The notes beneath the pieces were generated by a model, which searched no databases, was not told the DNA's origin, and was given only the letters and a program-made list of their open reading frames with translations. A stretch of DNA of 64,000 bases from Candidatus Iainarchaeum sp. (GTDB taxonomy: Archaea; Iainarchaeota; Iainarchaeia; Iainarchaeales; JAZDDZ01): positions 51,988 through 115,987 of the forward strand of contig JAZDDZ010000054.1 in the NCBI GenBank assembly GCA_043809245.1, written 5' to 3'. Shown here in pieces: positions 4,924 to 34,046 of the stretch (position 1 is the first letter of the stretch; each line of letters opens with the position of its first letter). The position numbers were made by a program, and so were the translations under genes.

Positions 4924-5011
4924 TAAGATGAAATAAAAATCTGCGGAGGAAGGGGGTCAGGAAGACCCTGAAACTGGGGGGAAACCCTAGGTTTCCCGCG
5001 GTTTGGAAGGA
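4924..5011 (+). repeat. Structured intergenic repeat element, copy 1 (S13-S4 junction)
   Basis: Homologous to 28237-28324 and 33959-34046; hairpin AAACTG..GGGAAACC-CTA-GGTTTCCC..CGGTTT (4971-5004). Confidence 0.85.
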
Positions 5012-5030
5012 AAAGAAAAAGTGATGATTT

Positions 5031-5663
5031 ATGGGCGACCCGAAAAAAACCTCAAGGCAGTATGAAAGGCCGAAAAAAAGATGGCAGAAGCAGAGGATAG
5101 AGAGCGAGAAGAAGATACTTGAAATCTACGGCCTGAAAAACAAAAGGGAATTAAGGAGAGCCGAGACAATTTTAAGGAAGAAAAGGCAGAGCGCAAGAAA
5201 GCTCCTTGCATTGCCTTTGGAGAAAAGGGAGAAAAAGGAACGCGAACTCGTTGAAAGCCTGATTAGAATGGGGCTGTTCAAGGCAAAGGCAACAGCCGAC
5301 GACATCTTAAGCCTTTCAATTGAGGAACTTCTTGAGAGAAGGCTGCAGACAATCATCTGGAGAAAAAACCTGGCAAAGACAGTCAAGCAGGCAAGGCAGT
5401 TCATCGCCCATGGGCACATTGCGGTTAACGGAGTAAAGACAACAAGCCCGAGCTACATTGTAAGGCACGGCGAAGAGGCAAAAATAGCCTATTACAAGAG
5501 GCCGATAATGCTTGAACCCCCAAAAAAAGACTCAAAGGAAAAAATGAAGAAAGCATTCGAGGAAGCAGCGCCCGCAGCAATTGAAGCCGCAGAGGAAGCA
5601 AAGGCAGGGGCAGTTGAAGCCGCGGCTGAAAAGAAAGAAACTCCTGTGGAGGCAAAGCAATGA
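5031..5663 (+). CDS. rpsD: 30S ribosomal protein uS4
   Basis: MGDPKK start; [26 protein letters not shown]. Confidence 0.97.
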
Positions 5664-6052
5664 GCGACAAAATAAAGCGCGGAATAATCCACATTTACGC
5701 ATCGCACAACAACACAATTATTTTGCTTACAGACCCCACTGGAGCGGAAACGATTGCAAAGTGCTCCGGGGGCATGGTTGTAAAGGCACAGCACAAAGAG
5801 GGCTCCCCTTATGCTGCAATGAAGGTAGCGGAAATCGTGGCGGAAAAGGCAAGGGAAAAAGGGATAACTAATGTCAAGATAAGGGTCAGGGCACAGGGAG
5901 GCATCAAGCCCCGTTCACCAGGCCAGGGCGCCGAGGCCGCAATTGTTTCGCTTACAAGGCACGGAATGATGATAGAGGACATTGAAAATGTCACGCCTTT
6001 GCCTCACGACGGCTGCAGGAGAAAAAAAAGGAACAGGAGCAAAAAAACTTAA
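5660..6052 (+). CDS. rpsK: 30S ribosomal protein uS11
   Basis: [24 protein letters not shown]. Confidence 0.97.
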
Positions 6053-6090
6053 TTGCAAATAAAAATGCATGAAAATTATTTGAAGGTGAA

Positions 6091-6672
6091 ATGAAAATGG
6101 AAGTAAAAGTTGTTTCGGATAAGGGCGCAATGCTGAAGTTCTCGGTTAAGGGAACTGATTCCGCGTTCGCGAACGCGTTGAGGAGAACTGTAATGAACAA
6201 CGTGCCGGTTTTCGCGATAGAGGATGTCTCGTTTTACGAGAACAGCGGCGTGGTATTCGATGAAATGCTTGCGCACAGGCTTGCACTGCTGCCAATCAAA
6301 ATGGATTTAAAGCACTACAAGGAAGGCGAAAGCGTCACAATGATGCTTGAAAAGGAAGGCCCTGGAATGGTGTACAGCAAGGACGTGAAAAGCACTGACC
6401 CCAAAATAGAGGTCATAGACAAAAGGATTCCCCTCACAAAGCTCAAAAAAGGGCAGAAGCTAAAGATTGAAATGAAGGCAGTGGCTGGAGTGGGAAAAGA
6501 GCACGCCAAATGGCAGCCCGCAATAATCGCTTACGAACAGCACGGCGAGGACGCATTCACTTTCATGATGGAAAGCCACGGCAACCTCGACAACGGGGAA
6601 ACAGTGAAGGCGGCAGTTGAAAGGTTAAGGGAGAAAACCGCGGAATTCAAGAAAGCATTAAAAGACATCTGA
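6091..6672 (+). CDS. rpoD: DNA-directed RNA polymerase subunit D (Rpo3), short form without Fe-S domain
   Basis: ANALRR, DEMLAHRLALLP, GKEHAKWQP. Confidence 0.95.
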   Translation: MKMEVKVVSDKGAMLKFSVKGTDSAFANALRRTVMNNVPVFAIEDVSFYENSGVVFDEMLAHRLALLPIKMDLKHYKEGESVTMMLEKEGPGMVYSKDVKSTDPKIEVIDKRIPLTKLKKGQKLKIEMKAVAGVGKEHAKWQPAIIAYEQHGEDAFTFMMESHGNLDNGETVKAAVERLREKTAEFKKALKDI

Positions 6673-6693
6673 GGTGGAAGATAGTTAGGCAAT

Positions 6694-6829
6694 GCAGGGG
6701 TACCGAAGCGGCTAAACGGGCGGGACTTAAGATGCTTGCAGGAAAAATTGCAATTGTTTTTTTTAAGCAGAAAAGCGGAGGAAATCCCGTGGCTTAGTGC
6801 CTTCAGCGGTTCGAATCCGCTCCCCTGCA
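6694..6829 (+). tRNA. tRNA-Leu(TAA) with 52-nt intron at 37/38 (6732-6783)
   Basis: Acceptor GCAGGGG/CCCCTGC+A; anticodon arm CGGGA-CTTAAG..A-TCCCG; T-arm GGTTCGAATCC; long variable arm; usual rpoD-L18e position. Confidence 0.93.
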
Positions 6830-6872
6830 AAAAAAAACCATTAAAAGGAAAAATGAAAAAAAGTGAAATGAA

Positions 6873-32307: not shown

Positions 32308-32692
32308 AAAAAAGGCCAGGGGCGTGGCGCTTGACGCGAACATGCTTTTGGCGGTAGAGCAGTTCAGGGTTGATTTGAAAGAGGGGTTGAAGAATATTTT
32401 CGGCGGAAAAATAGAGGTTGTTGTTCCAACGCAAGTCATGGAAGAACTTGAAAGGCTGGGTGGAAAGGAAAAAAAGCTGCAGAGGGCTGCAAGTGTTGCG
32501 GAAAAGGTTTTGAAGCAATTGAATGCAGTGGAAAAAAAAGTGGATGCGCGGAATGCGGATGAAGCGCTTCTTTTGCTTTCGGAAAAAGGTTACATTGTTG
32601 CGACAAATGACTGGGAATTGAAGAAAAAAATCATGAAGAAAGGCGGCAAAGTGCTGCATTTGAGGCAGAAAAAGCGCTTGGAGTTCGCGTAA
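32291..32692 (+). CDS. PIN-domain protein (Fcf1/Utp24-like)
   Basis: LDAN; V..EL; ADEAL; VATND; conserved position after aIF2-gamma. Confidence 0.85.
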   Translation: MESSGEKKARGVALDANMLLAVEQFRVDLKEGLKNIFGGKIEVVVPTQVMEELERLGGKEKKLQRAASVAEKVLKQLNAVEKKVDARNADEALLLLSEKGYIVATNDWELKKKIMKKGGKVLHLRQKKRLEFA

Positions 32693-32774
32693 CGAAATGC
32701 TGTTAAATTGATGCGGAATGTTGCGTTTTTTAAGTTATTGGTGAAAAAAATCTGAAAAGGAGTTGAAATAAAAC

Positions 32775-33392
32775 ATGTACGCGGTTTGCAGTGTAAGGGA
32801 CACGGTAAGGGTTCCGCCAAGCGATTTGGGCGGAAGCCTCAGGAAAGCCATGCTTAAGCTGACGAGGCAGACTTACGAGGGATTAATGGATGAGGACATA
32901 GGGGTTGTTGTAACGGTTTTAGAGGTTGAAAACATCGGCGAGGGAAGGGTTATTCCCGGAGACGGCGCGGTTTATGTTCCCGCTGACATAAAAATGCTTG
33001 TATACAAGCCGGAAATGCATGAAGTCGTTGAAGGGTTTGTGACCGAGATAACGGAGTTTGGCGCTTTCCTGAGGACAGGGCCTGTTGAAGGCTTGATTCA
33101 CGTGAGCCAGGTCATGGATGACTACATCAATTACGATGCGAAAAACAAGGTTCTCACGGGAAAACAGCACAAGAAAAAGCTTGGGGTTGGAGACGACGTG
33201 TTTGCAAAGGTTGTGAGCATTTCATTTAAGGGAAACATTTCGAATTCAAAAATAGGCTTGACCATGAGGCAGGAAGGATTGGGAAAAGCGGATTGGAAAA
33301 AAATTGACGACAAGGCGGTAAAAATAAAGGAACGTGAAATAAAAAGCGAAAAAAAGCCGGAAAAAAAAGATAAAAGCGAGGGAAAGAAATGA
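32775..33392 (+). CDS. rpoE1: RNA polymerase subunit E' (Rpo7)
   Basis: VRVPP; FGAFLRTGPVEGLIHVSQ; IGLTMRQ. Confidence 0.96.
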   Translation: MYAVCSVRDTVRVPPSDLGGSLRKAMLKLTRQTYEGLMDEDIGVVVTVLEVENIGEGRVIPGDGAVYVPADIKMLVYKPEMHEVVEGFVTEITEFGAFLRTGPVEGLIHVSQVMDDYINYDAKNKVLTGKQHKKKLGVGDDVFAKVVSISFKGNISNSKIGLTMRQEGLGKADWKKIDDKAVKIKEREIKSEKKPEKKDKSEGKK

Positions 33393-33583
33393 ATAAGGGA
33401 AAGGCTTGCAGGCAATGCAGGCGTGTAATAGAGGAAGGCGACAAGTGCCCGGTATGCGGGGGAAGCGCTTTCACAACCTTCTGGAGGGGCTATGTTGTAA
33501 TCATTGACTCGGAAAAGTCCGAGATAGCGCAGAAAATGGGTATAACCACGCAGGGAAGGTTTGCGTTAAGGCTTAGCAGGTAA
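33389..33583 (+). CDS. spt4: Transcription elongation factor Spt4 (RpoE'')
   Basis: ACRQC..CPVC..W.G..SEIA. Confidence 0.94.
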   Translation: MNKGKACRQCRRVIEEGDKCPVCGGSAFTTFWRGYVVIIDSEKSEIAQKMGITTQGRFALRLSR

Positions 33584-33604
33584 AAAGGAAAAGGAGAGGA
33601 GAGA

Positions 33605-33949
33605 TTGAAGCTGAACATATATTCAAGGGAAAAGAACCCTTTGCTTGAAAGGGAGGAAATAAGCTTTGGCGTTGAAAGCGCAAGCGTAACCCCTTCAAGG
33701 AAAGATGTCAGGGCGAAAATCGCGGCGCTTGTGAACGCGAAAGAGGAAACCGTTGTCATTGAACAGTTAAGGCAGCGCTTTGGCGAAAAAAAAACCGAGG
33801 GAACCGCAAGGGTTTACGCGTCTGTTGAAAAAATGAACAAAATAGAGCCCAAGCACCTTGTTGAAAGGAATTTCGGCGGCGGAAAAAAAGGGAAAAAGGA
33901 AGGCGAAGCAGAAGAAGCGCCAAAGGAAGATAAAAAAGCCGAAAAATGA
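33605..33949 (+). CDS. rps24e: 30S ribosomal protein eS24
   Basis: NPLLERE; TPSR; ARVY. Confidence 0.94.
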   Translation: MKLNIYSREKNPLLEREEISFGVESASVTPSRKDVRAKIAALVNAKEETVVIEQLRQRFGEKKTEGTARVYASVEKMNKIEPKHLVERNFGGGKKGKKEGEAEEAPKEDKKAEK

Positions 33950-33958
33950 AAAACAGTT

Positions 33959-34046
33959 TAAGATGAAGGAAAAATATATGCAGGAGGGGAATCAGGAAAT
34001 ACCTAAAACTGAAGGGGAACCTGGGTTCCCCTGCGGTTTGGAAGGA
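33959..34046 (+). repeat. Structured intergenic repeat element, copy 3 (S24e-S27ae junction)
   Basis: Hairpin AAACTG-A-AGGGGAAC-CTGG-GTTCCCCT-G-CGGTTT (34006-34039). Confidence 0.85.

Follow-up and report, generated by a model that had tools for sequence, protein, structure and literature searches.

A probable miniature insertion element with a predicted triplex layout in DPANN-type archaea

We describe a short archaeal repeat that is best read as a structured miniature mobile element and not as a dedicated regulatory RNA. We put the probability at roughly 0.7 that the repeats represent a non-autonomous miniature insertion element, structured, with a core folded on the sense strand in the layout of a class I triplex.

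Copies in the window and distribution of the family

Three homologous non-coding stretches lie on the + strand of the 64-kb window, the whole stretch of DNA analysed here, at about 4921-5008 (copy 1, S13–S4 spacer), 28234-28322 (copy 2, ndk–dut spacer) and 33956-34043 (copy 3, S24e–S27ae spacer). Boundaries are those of covariance model R1, converted from coordinates on contig C54 (56908-56995, 80221-80309 and 85943-86030), and R1 scores the copies at 91.5 bits (E 7.7e-24; nhmmer E 3.8e-21), 99.3 bits (E 3.6e-26) and 94.8 bits (E 7.7e-25), respectively. The pattern TCAGGA-N6-10-AAACTG-N15-30-GCGGTTT has exactly three sites in the window, all on the + strand and all within these copies, and the same strict pattern has no match in 100 dinucleotide shuffles of the window. 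Aligned over 142 columns, the copies have a mean column identity of 78%. Pattern and alignment thus agree with an earlier sequence-only reading on the three places and their shared strand, with ends slightly shifted by the covariance model, and Pfam identities of the surrounding genes (S13/S4, NDK/dUTPase and S24e/S27a) bear out its gene calls. As that reading also held, each copy stops just before the next gene, 10-25 nt from its start codon, and copies 1 and 2 carry stops, here found in every one of the three frames; in copy 3 one frame is open. The window copies are most likely neutral passengers within highly expressed operons.

The source genome (1.48 Mb) holds 11 copies (nhmmer E ≤ 9.2e-13 each; next match E 6.6), and the covariance model recovers the same 11. 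The element is carried by 5 of the order's 41 genomes and by 6 of the 151 sampled from the phylum; carriers include G004 (15 copies in a 94% complete genome), G015 (97% complete), G000, G022 and G034. Among loci found by pattern, 50 of 51 with an archaeal label passed the covariance model compared with 0 of 29 with a bacterial label, and 80 metagenome loci gave 71 covariance-model matches. The element is therefore patchily distributed in DPANN-type archaea and present on many archaeal MAG and metagenome contigs. It measures about 88 nt in the source genome, with a core of about 58-60 nt common to DPANN-type archaea and a 5′ end that varies between lineages. In some lineages the element breaks metagenome assemblies. 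The repeat had not been recognised as a named family, and Rfam 15 indeed yields none for the copies: at gathering score the 64-kb window has no match, and at E ≤ 10 the eight copy-bearing loci have three weak matches, none overlapping any copy.

A covarying hairpin and a mirrored purine tract

Folding placed a hairpin near the 3′ end of each window copy on the + strand. In copy 1 (4967-5006; DNA and RNA folds, RNAalifold on 11 copies), closing CC/GG pairs join 4967-4968 with 5005-5006, the basal helix pairs 4971-4976 with 4999-5004, unpaired G4977(-4978) faces G4998, and the upper stem pairs 4979-4986 with 4990-4997. The copy 2 hairpin (28280-28320; DNA fold z = -6.07) has closing CA/TG, a basal helix of 28284-28289 with 28313-28318, G28290 opposite G28312 and an upper stem of 28291-28298 with 28304-28311; its closing pair 48-86 takes the A-U form in RNAalifold. 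In copy 3 (34002-34041; folds and RNAalifold), closing CC/GG is followed by a basal helix of 34006-34011 with 34034-34039, A34012 opposite G34033 and an upper stem of 34013-34020 with 34025-34032. The folds thus contain every part of the structure first proposed from the sequence, namely an AAACTG/CGGTTT basal helix, a purine.purine mismatch (A.G in copy 3, G.G in the other two) and an upper stem that varies yet stays paired, and add two closing pairs (CC...GG) that extend the helix and both covary. The ViennaRNA folds model the hairpin only; the 5′ part is unpaired in all eight folded copies and in the consensus fold, and the internal hairpin is the sole complementarity, with no terminal inverted repeats. 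A nearly invariant single-stranded motif, TCAGGA (4957-4962, 28270-28275 and 33992-33997, + strand), opens an 11-nt linker between the upstream purine tract, tract U, and the helix, and is retained in the 11 own copies and in relatives retrieved by covariance model, not by pattern.

Covariation in a larger alignment, an outstanding check on this structure, proved significant. RNAalifold on the 11 own copies detects compensatory changes at 7 of 16 pairs, with the U.G (T.G) wobble of the basal helix kept in 11 of 11. Pairing extends to 93.8% of cells among 52 distinct MAG copies, a level reached by 0 of 500 shuffles and well above slid controls (maximum 62.9%), and double changes occur at 10 of 16 pairs.

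The purine tract 5′ of TCAGGA mirrors the purine strand of the hairpin, an observation new here that leads us to reject the tract as a mere spacer. In copy 1, tract U (AAGGGGG, 4950-4956, + strand) read 3′ to 5′ equals the sequence from 4977 onward read 5′ to 3′; in copy 2, AGAGGGG (28263-28269, +) mirrors GGGGAGA at 28290-28296; and in copy 3, AGGGGAA (33985-33991, +) mirrors AAGGGGA at 34012-34018. Mirror identity is 0.80 at register 0, compared with at most 0.60 at other registers, 0.72 at the best direct-repeat register and 0.61 ± 0.015 in shuffles, of which 0 of 2000 reach 0.80; it replicates at 0.912 in 57 new distinct metagenome rows (other registers 0.58-0.68; shuffles 0.744 ± 0.016), figures to be read with the low complexity of purine tracts and the non-independence of related copies in mind. 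Across 117 distinct copies, canonical triples (G.G-C, A.A-T and T.A-T) occupy layers 2-7 in 115, 110, 107, 101, 93 and 85, and runs of at least four such triples occur in 92 of 117 rows compared with 611 of 2340 for third strands swapped in from another copy. Copy 3 represents an 'AA' variant in which the third strand, the purine strand and, at layer 2, the pyrimidine strand have changed jointly; the layer 2 A.A-T triple occurs in five rows. Because the retrieval pattern for two of the three sequence sets fixes GGTCAGGA, AACTG and GCGGTT, conservation of those motifs in these two sets is a product of the retrieval.

Three consecutive blocks of one strand thus obey the triplex code, and the third strand runs antiparallel to the purine one. 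A class I intrastrand triplex is described as a reverse-Hoogsteen domain followed by a purine and then a pyrimidine domain, and the purine-motif code as A(T)AT plus GGC (PMC4666352). The element core has this class I purine-motif layout as a predicted fold; the linker from third strand to purine strand is about 22 nt and partly basal helix, longer than the 1-6-nt loops between blocks that the ITxF definition of intrastrand triplex motifs gives. The same account of purine-motif triplexes says that RNA is unable to form them (PMC4666352). Because the code is reported for DNA and not RNA, the element's triplex code points to DNA.

Insertion, orientation and rival explanations

Copies entered pre-existing sequence with target duplications of 13-46 nt. 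Direct repeats of 22, 15 and 41 nt flank three of eight own copies examined, and direct-repeat scores of at least 12 occur at 15 of 80 copies compared with 1 of 396 mismatched-flank controls; further flanking repeats were found by eye at the copy on C44 and at L041 (26 nt). Beside the three window copies no duplication is significant (scores 8, 6 and 5, the control range). Overall, roughly a fifth of copies have a flanking duplication, whose length differs per site and which often doubles a start or stop codon: at three loci (L014, L023, L037) the right repeat includes the true start codon of the downstream ORF, and at three others (L018, L028, L032) the left repeat terminates exactly on the upstream stop codon. 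Empty junctions provide a second line of evidence, as the S13–S4 spacer, said to be usually short in archaea, spans 117 nt in the source genome and 4-20 nt in 26 of 29 relatives.

Insertions also lie within genes. In PGM/PMM the C9 copy separates domains I and II as an insertion, with query residues 138-175 standing against chain residues 144-146 of 3bkq; a copy in G015 sits within the D-aminoacyl-tRNA deacylase (DTD; tRNA_deacylase) domain; and others occupy an FKBP-type gene and the N-terminal region of an intein-bearing ORF. At L180, three copies follow tRNA-Ser, and behind each of them the tRNA 3′ end is duplicated over 22-39 nt; some copies follow stop codons in convergent spacers. Surviving insertions thus lie just past start or stop codons or the 3′ end of a tRNA, or keep the reading frame where a protein tolerates them. 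Rickettsia palindromic elements (RPE), a selfish DNA that keeps the frame of the protein genes it enters, are likewise small hairpin repeats; they occur both between genes and in frame in conserved proteins of a reduced-genome symbiont, to which they add a peptide segment. RPE belong to another domain of life, and we know of no report of a triplex-type mirror tract or of long variable target duplications for them.

The copies are oriented in the sense of the local gene where this can be resolved, a bias that is not absolute. Outside G000, where both flanking genes are called by homology and point the same way, copies are 16 sense/sense and 0 antisense/antisense, and one more spans a sense gene, so that orientation, which the sequence-only reading had put forward as a check, is non-random. 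With one flank called, 29 neighbours are sense and 15 antisense, and on metagenome contigs L202 and L228 the sole visible neighbour is antisense.

Sense orientation and the conserved wobble would fit an RNA-level role as well. A cis-acting RNA for mRNA processing, stability or translation coupling, selected at operon junctions, with the hairpin acting in the transcript and spread secondary, would also accommodate the covarying hairpin, window copies that stop just ahead of the next gene's ribosome-binding site, and a linker that in some copies tolerates extra hairpins, as structured RNAs do. We consider it unlikely, given the in-frame copies in PGM/PMM and DTD, the copies in convergent spacers and behind a tRNA, and the diversity of gene contexts, in which no gene recurs (at most 3 of 146 regions have homologues of any one G000 ORF beside copies); the dedicated processing or translation-control RNA first offered is, on the same observations, not supported as the element's primary nature. 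In addition, 36 of 41 genomes of the order do without the element, with S13–S4 spacers there of 4-20 nt, and the mirror covariation obeys the purine-motif code, including T opposite A-T, reported as not formed by RNA.

The ends of the element would fit a SINE-like retroposon, in which host read-through transcripts ending at the hairpin would be reverse transcribed and inserted by target-primed synthesis. In most flanked copies the right repeat begins 0-1 nt past GGTTYGG, defining a constant 3′ end, and the 5′ boundary lies 8 to >40 nt upstream of TCAGGA and varies even inside one genome; variable duplication length and sense orientation would follow the same logic. An A-rich 3′ tail is absent, however, the triplex code favours DNA over RNA, and the reverse transcriptase profile RVT_1 (PF00078) matches 0 of 5 carriers, among them a two-contig genome that is 97% complete, compared with 7 of 36 non-carriers, making a retroposon a long shot.

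Still less probable is an element of the IS200/IS605 type (PATE- or REP-like), with a Y1 HUH transposase recognising the imperfect hairpin and mobilising the element in single-stranded form. The sub-terminal hairpin with its conserved mismatch and strand-specific behaviour would suit such an enzyme, and Y1_Tnp (PF01797) is present in 2 of 5 carriers (G000, 4 matches; G034, 2 matches) and in 10 of 36 non-carriers. The profile is absent, though, from G004, with its 15 copies, and from G015 and G022, and neither covariance model nor nhmmer finds a copy near the G000 Y1 genes, so a search for the linked Y1/HUH transposase that the first reading envisaged came out against it. Like the element, REP/BIME and IS200/IS605-derived PATE are dispersed in many copies, behave strand-specifically and form a short, imperfect hairpin; to our knowledge, long target duplications are not made by the IS200/IS605 family. 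The archaeal element differs in its in-gene copies, where REP is extragenic, and is not REP/PATE-like: it has a single hairpin instead of one per end, lacks terminal inverted repeats and makes duplications that are long and variable. Of the earlier mobile-element proposal, harmless insertion stands, backed by duplications, empty junctions, in-frame copies and patchiness, and the REP/PATE likeness does not.

A remnant of a protein-coding module (peptide ...GQExPxTGG...), suggested by one frame common to in-gene copies C9, C49, L025, L033 and L016, or a chance low-complexity purine repeat of no mobile or structural meaning, is very improbable given stops in that frame in most own copies, shuffles of the window that yield no match, and base-pair and triple covariation that coding leaves unexplained.

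Other routes were also rejected. Cas1 (PF01867) matches 0 of 5 carriers compared with 7 of 36 non-carriers, and with no Cas1-family integrase in the five carriers we rejected a casposon or Cas1-mediated integration. A classical MITE was rejected because the element lacks an inverted repeat at both ends and its duplications are long and site-variable, where those of classical MITEs are described as short and of fixed length, 2-10 bp (PMC11602168). Profile searches of carrier genomes for reverse transcriptase, Cas1 and Y1, and gene recurrence beside copies in the 146 regions, pointed to no mobilising enzyme.

In the favoured reading as a miniature insertion element, the whole conserved core would fold as a single unit on the sense strand. 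Its parts would be a basal helix of 6 bp extended by two closing pairs, an upper helix of 8 bp with a purine-rich 5′ strand, and the upstream purine tract lying antiparallel to that strand and matching it base for base. The active form may be single-stranded sense-strand DNA, a step we hold with lower confidence, supplied for example by the non-template strand exposed by transcription or by a flap or gap at a replication fork. Host replication or repair functions, or another enzyme, would join it to the target, and re-copying of a short target stretch could generate the variable duplication. A bolder and less likely reading would make the core a self-contained single-stranded DNA fold, a class I purine-motif triplex stacked on a short helix, and the element a new kind of DPANN mobile DNA without a transposase of known family; its point of entry would be the sense strand exposed by transcription, or a flap or gap at a fork.

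Known repeats and significance

Bacteria, E. coli among them, have repeats of similar layout: BoxC, PIT (potential intrastrand triplex) and TM-ECO, which Holder et al. (2015, PMC4666352) describe as short, dispersed, multi-copy sequences with three same-strand purine-motif blocks, non-coding, with no known function or linked transposase in that account, and acting, if at all, on transiently single-stranded DNA. TM-ECO is described there as class II, 37 nt long, with few-nt loops, always intergenic, nearly invariant in sequence and without strand bias (13 plus, 10 minus), and for the E. coli TM motifs the published account gives no triplex formation detected in vivo. The archaeal element, likened by layout with no sequence similarity claimed, is in contrast class I, with a 22-nt structured linker and a second helix, three-way covariation across lineages, sense bias, in-gene copies and 13-46-nt duplications. 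Long direct repeats of variable length are also described for insertion of IS1634 and IS1549 (IS4-related; cited in PMC2266710). Those insertion sequences are autonomous and kilobase-sized, are bounded by terminal inverted repeats and encode a DDE transposase; the archaeal element, at 60-90 nt, has neither inverted termini nor a linked transposase.

Catalogues of natural intrastrand triplex motifs in bacteria list repeats that hardly vary, offer no evolutionary test of the fold and have no known behaviour. In the archaeal element all three strands change jointly across many lineages, the type of evidence used for RNA structures, here for a probable DNA structure. If the bolder reading of the core as a single-stranded DNA triplex is true, this would be a natural DNA triple helix backed by three-way covariation and the first mobile element with a triplex identity, and a triplex hairpin would be an unusual design for mobile DNA. 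Insertion of the element accounts for oddly long spacers and added peptide segments where the operons and enzymes of these genomes are otherwise conserved, and its long variable duplications and transcription-direction bias, without a recognisable enzyme, make its spread testable in DPANN archaea, whose mobile DNA is poorly known.

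Fold and distribution of the element

A strict pattern for the ~88-nt element matches exactly three sites in the window, all on the plus strand, and 0 of 100 dinucleotide-shuffled versions of the window. The three stretches singled out by the sequence-only reading are real and homologous. All three lie between co-directional genes, which Pfam assigns to S13 and S4, nucleoside diphosphate kinase and dUTPase, and S24e and S27a. The S13 protein (window 4275-4913) has 212 aa, with the Pfam S13 domain covering residues 49-180 only, and carries a charged extension of low complexity at its N-terminus and a tail rich in lysine; S24e and an FKBP-type protein end in similar lysine-rich tails. 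The Rfam comparison proposed earlier found no relevant family for the element in Rfam 15, and within the 64-kb window the gathering score is reached by no Rfam family at all, tRNA and rRNA included.

Whether folded as RNA or as DNA, each window copy forms a 6-bp basal helix AAACTG/CGGTTT, a purine·purine mismatch and an upper stem of 8 bp that varies in sequence from copy to copy. Compensatory changes occur in 7 of the 16 predicted pairs among the 11 copies of the genome under study, including the two closing pairs CC/GG, which take an A-U form in the second window copy and had been missed by the sequence-only reading. In 52 distinct copies from metagenome-assembled genomes, 93.8% of cells are paired and double changes affect 10 of 16 pairs, in an alignment fitted to the covariance model of the element and with parts of the basal helix fixed by the retrieval pattern; 0 of 500 shuffles reach the observed values, and sliding the partner strand leaves pairing at no more than 62.9%. 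We rejected a first hairpin, GGGTC/GACCC, that appears in some folds and is missing from other copies.

The assembly under study comprises 1.48 Mb in 55 contigs and is 91.8% complete; the window occupies C54:51988-115987. An nhmmer profile built on the first eight copies identified 11 copies at E ≤ 9.2e-13, the next match having E 6.6, and the covariance model used for genome searches, R1, recovers the identical 11. Beyond the window, three copies lie in same-strand ORFs, on contig C9 in a PGM/PMM gene, on C49 in the N-terminal part of an ORF with an intein and at C44:22599 in the last codons of an FKBP-type gene. Each of the remaining five is either followed directly by an ORF or start signal on its own strand or preceded by an ORF on that strand. 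The intein of the C49 host ORF (L010:1253-3082) contains a LAGLIDADG homing endonuclease domain (Pfam Intein_splicing, LAGLIDADG_3), placing two unrelated selfish insertions in one gene. On C53, an 80-aa ORF resembling a DDE-type transposase fragment (L005:1188-1430, minus strand) abuts the one copy that lacks the genome-specific 5′ extension; this copy may have been cut by an insertion sequence, unless the two are neighbors by chance.

Within the order, R1 matches 5 of 41 genomes, each from a different family, with 11 copies in the genome under study (G000) and 15, 5, 6 and 3 in G004, G015, G022 and G034; in a phylum-wide sample searched under stricter filters, 6 of 151 genomes carry the element. 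When one genome per species was scanned with a pattern, 80 loci emerged, and the covariance model was passed by 50 of the 51 labelled as archaeal versus 0 of the 29 labelled as bacterial; the bacterial matches are chance. Archaeal labels are mostly Micrarchaeota/Micrarchaeia, with further loci in Iainarchaeum, Norongarragalinales, Altiarchaeales, Aenigmatarchaeota, Woesearchaeota and some Methanobacteriota/Euryarchaeota metagenome-assembled genomes. Metagenome contigs supplied 71 further model matches in 80 loci, and in one sample contigs break at copies that carry a long 5′ extension and an extra hairpin. These counts come from genomes of metagenome-assembled quality, related copies are not independent and two of the sequence sets were selected by pattern. 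The pattern scan of IMG/VR gave one stretch, where the model fails, and a best E elsewhere of 0.13, nothing convincing in viral contigs, and distant-mode blastn against plasmid and phage collections gave no match.

Insertion, boundaries and orientation

Direct repeats of 22, 15 and 41 nt flank three of the eight copies examined in the genome under study. The flanking repeat at C44:22599 is a second copy of the 11 codons that immediately precede the insertion point, and the FKBP-type ORF now enters the element and stops in its hairpin, leaving the original tail downstream and out of reach. A repeat score of at least 12 is reached by 15 of 80 copies with enough flank versus 1 of 396 control pairings of unrelated flanks; the scored repeats are 13-46 nt long and begin within a few bases of the 3′ end, and two longer cases, the C44 repeat (35-41 nt) and a 26-nt repeat at L041, fall beyond the 60-nt scoring window. 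In three extracted loci (L014, L023 and L037) the true start codon of the downstream ORF lies inside the right-hand repeat, and in three others (L018, L028 and L032) the left-hand repeat ends precisely with the stop codon that closes the upstream ORF. The metagenome locus L180 (2821-3450) contains an intact tRNA-Ser(GGA) followed by three copies, each succeeded by 22-39 nt that duplicate the 3′ end of the tRNA and two with extra linker hairpins, and at L114 a third copy of a 23-nt repeat separates two identical copies. The flanking repeats prompted us to consider an intron or translational bypass, a reading disfavored because most flanked copies lie outside ORFs.

Empty sites and interrupted proteins point the same way. 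The S13–S4 spacer measures 4-20 nt in 26 of 29 measured relatives, the rest being 68 nt, 108 nt and one mis-called overlap, and 117 nt in the genome under study, of which the element makes up 88 nt. The 68- and 108-nt spacers (L300 in G013 and L305 in G012) contain no model match, the latter is A/G-rich, and both could hold other inserts or small ORFs. Residues 138-175 of the PGM/PMM protein, which fall between its Pfam domains I and II, have just three counterparts in the enzyme from Pseudomonas, and in another genome a copy lies within the D-aminoacyl-tRNA deacylase domain. None of the three window copies has a significant flanking repeat; we infer their insertion from the behavior of the family and the empty S13–S4 junctions. 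The sequence-only reading had offered either a regulatory or processing RNA or a miniature mobile element, and the duplications, empty junctions and in-gene copies bear out the second half, the first finding no support as the main explanation. Copies adjoin L13/S9 ribosomal protein genes in three different genomes (L024, L110 and L194), where either one old insertion is shared by orthology or the site is hit repeatedly, and at L024 a tRNA-like sequence that ARAGORN does not call immediately follows the copy.

Only the 3′ part of the element, ~58-60 nt, is shared across genomes; the AAGAT...AAAAAT 5′ part of the consensus proposed earlier is specific to the variant in the genome under study. 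The A/T-rich 5′ extension of that variant is TATA-like in look, which suggests a possible mobile promoter. The 3′ end is constant; the left repeat lies 40-43 nt from TCAGGA in the genome under study and 8 to more than 40 nt from it in G004. The minimal inserted unit, seen for example at L032, where the left repeat stops 8 nt before TCAGGA, runs from the purine tract 5′ of TCAGGA to the closing pairs, so that what moves is also what folds. The linker, TCAGGA plus five bases, is fixed in length, with extra hairpins in a few copies.

We analyzed orientation for 146 copies outside the genome under study, calling neighbor genes by homology to its ORFs and discarding calls from stop-to-stop ORFs because antisense shadow ORFs mislabel known sense contexts in that genome. 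Both neighbors are sense at 16 copies and both antisense at none; one copy lies within a sense gene, six lie in convergent and four in divergent spacers, a single called neighbor is sense at 29 and antisense at 15, and 75 of 146 have no called neighbor. At flanked, presumably recent insertions the start or stop codon in the repeat is on the element strand in every checkable case. The sense bias is strong, though not demonstrated to be absolute: at L202 and L228 the sole visible neighbor is antisense. A composite transposon with inverted copies at both ends of these two loci was rejected, the copies sitting at contig breaks and the ORFs being laid out as ordinary divergent operons. The metagenome locus L182 (351-544), where two head-to-head copies, one per strand, lie beside a T-arm-like sequence, is one of few sites with an antisense copy directly beside a sense copy.

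A mirror tract and a putative triplex

The purine tract just 5′ of TCAGGA, read 3′ to 5′, repeats the bases that follow AACTG read 5′ to 3′. Over 78 distinct rows this mirror identity is 0.80 at register and at most 0.60 at one to three positions off, and shuffled partners give 0.61 ± 0.015, with 0 of 2000 shuffles reaching the observed value. In 57 further distinct metagenome rows it is 0.912, versus 0.58-0.68 in other registers and 0.744 ± 0.016 in shuffles, and per-position tables of both row sets agree with the mirror. Watson–Crick pairing between the upstream tract and the 3′ strand was rejected: it calls for a direct repeat, and the best such register reaches 0.72 in the 78 rows against 0.80 for the mirror.

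We tallied the tract as a proposed third strand on the hairpin in 117 distinct copies, from 157 in all, 8 of which lack the anchors. G·G-C, A·A-T or T·A-T occupies stacked positions (layers) 2-7 in 115, 110, 107, 101, 93 and 85 of the 117; layer 4 alone has 50 G·G-C, 47 A·A-T, 10 T·A-T and 10 others, and layer 1 has G·G opposite G in 110 rows and A·A opposite G in 7. In 92 of 117 rows the canonical triples run unbroken for four layers or more, versus 611 of 2340 with the tract of another copy. The antiparallel purine-motif code and polarity, and class I, in which the reverse-Hoogsteen domain comes first and the purine and pyrimidine domains follow, are set out in PMC4666352, and by this code the tract and hairpin strands read as a class I antiparallel purine motif, an assignment made from base identities and strand polarity.

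Two other structures fit less well. A pyrimidine-motif triplex on the opposite strand is disfavored by the departures of the third strand from identity at A-T pairs, which are mostly to T (13 cases in the 57 metagenome rows); a T on this strand is an A on the other, and its frequency opposite A-T pairs thus fits a triplex on the element strand. A G-quadruplex of the two G-rich tracts was rejected, as AA-type variants lose the G-runs and keep the mirror rule.

Mobilization and relation to known elements

The element inserts with long, variable duplications, a fixed 3′ end and a sense bias, and its fold is under selection; the enzymes tested do not track it. Retroposition agrees with the end pattern and lacks an enzyme, as reverse transcriptase (RVT_1) is found in 0 of 5 carrier genomes of the order versus 7 of 36 others; Cas1 has the same distribution (0 of 5 versus 7 of 36). 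Mobilization by a Y1 transposase would suit the hairpin, but the duplications and the gene distribution do not fit, with Y1_Tnp in 2 of 5 carriers versus 10 of 36 others. The genome under study has four matches to IS200/IS605-type Y1 transposases (C23:37432-37794, C8:84815-85177, C33:2-178 and C2:5276-5545), none with an element copy nearby, and no recurrently linked gene was found beside copies.

According to PMC4666352, purine-motif triplexes are unable to form in RNA. We infer that the active form of the element would be its sense strand, folded as single-stranded DNA. Speculatively, this folded strand might be joined to a target 3′ end and a short stretch of target re-copied, yielding the duplication, whose size of 13-46 nt is in the range of a transcription bubble, short R-loop or flap.

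Literature searches found no description of the element, and by the features that define each class it is not a classical MITE, a REP/PATE element, a casposon or a SINE-like element. It behaves like the Rickettsia palindromic elements, whose insertions into genes are in frame, and its duplications are reminiscent of those of IS1634 and IS1549. A MITE census (PMC11602168) uses terminal inverted repeats and duplications of 2-10 bp as its criteria and would for that reason miss the element. Its closest known counterparts are the bacterial BoxC/PIT/TM-ECO intrastrand triplex repeats, which are class II, 37 nt long, almost invariant, always intergenic and without strand bias, and whose triplex is not detectable in vivo. 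Judged by its sequence, the archaeal element would thus combine two known kinds of element, miniature insertion elements and intrastrand triplex repeats.
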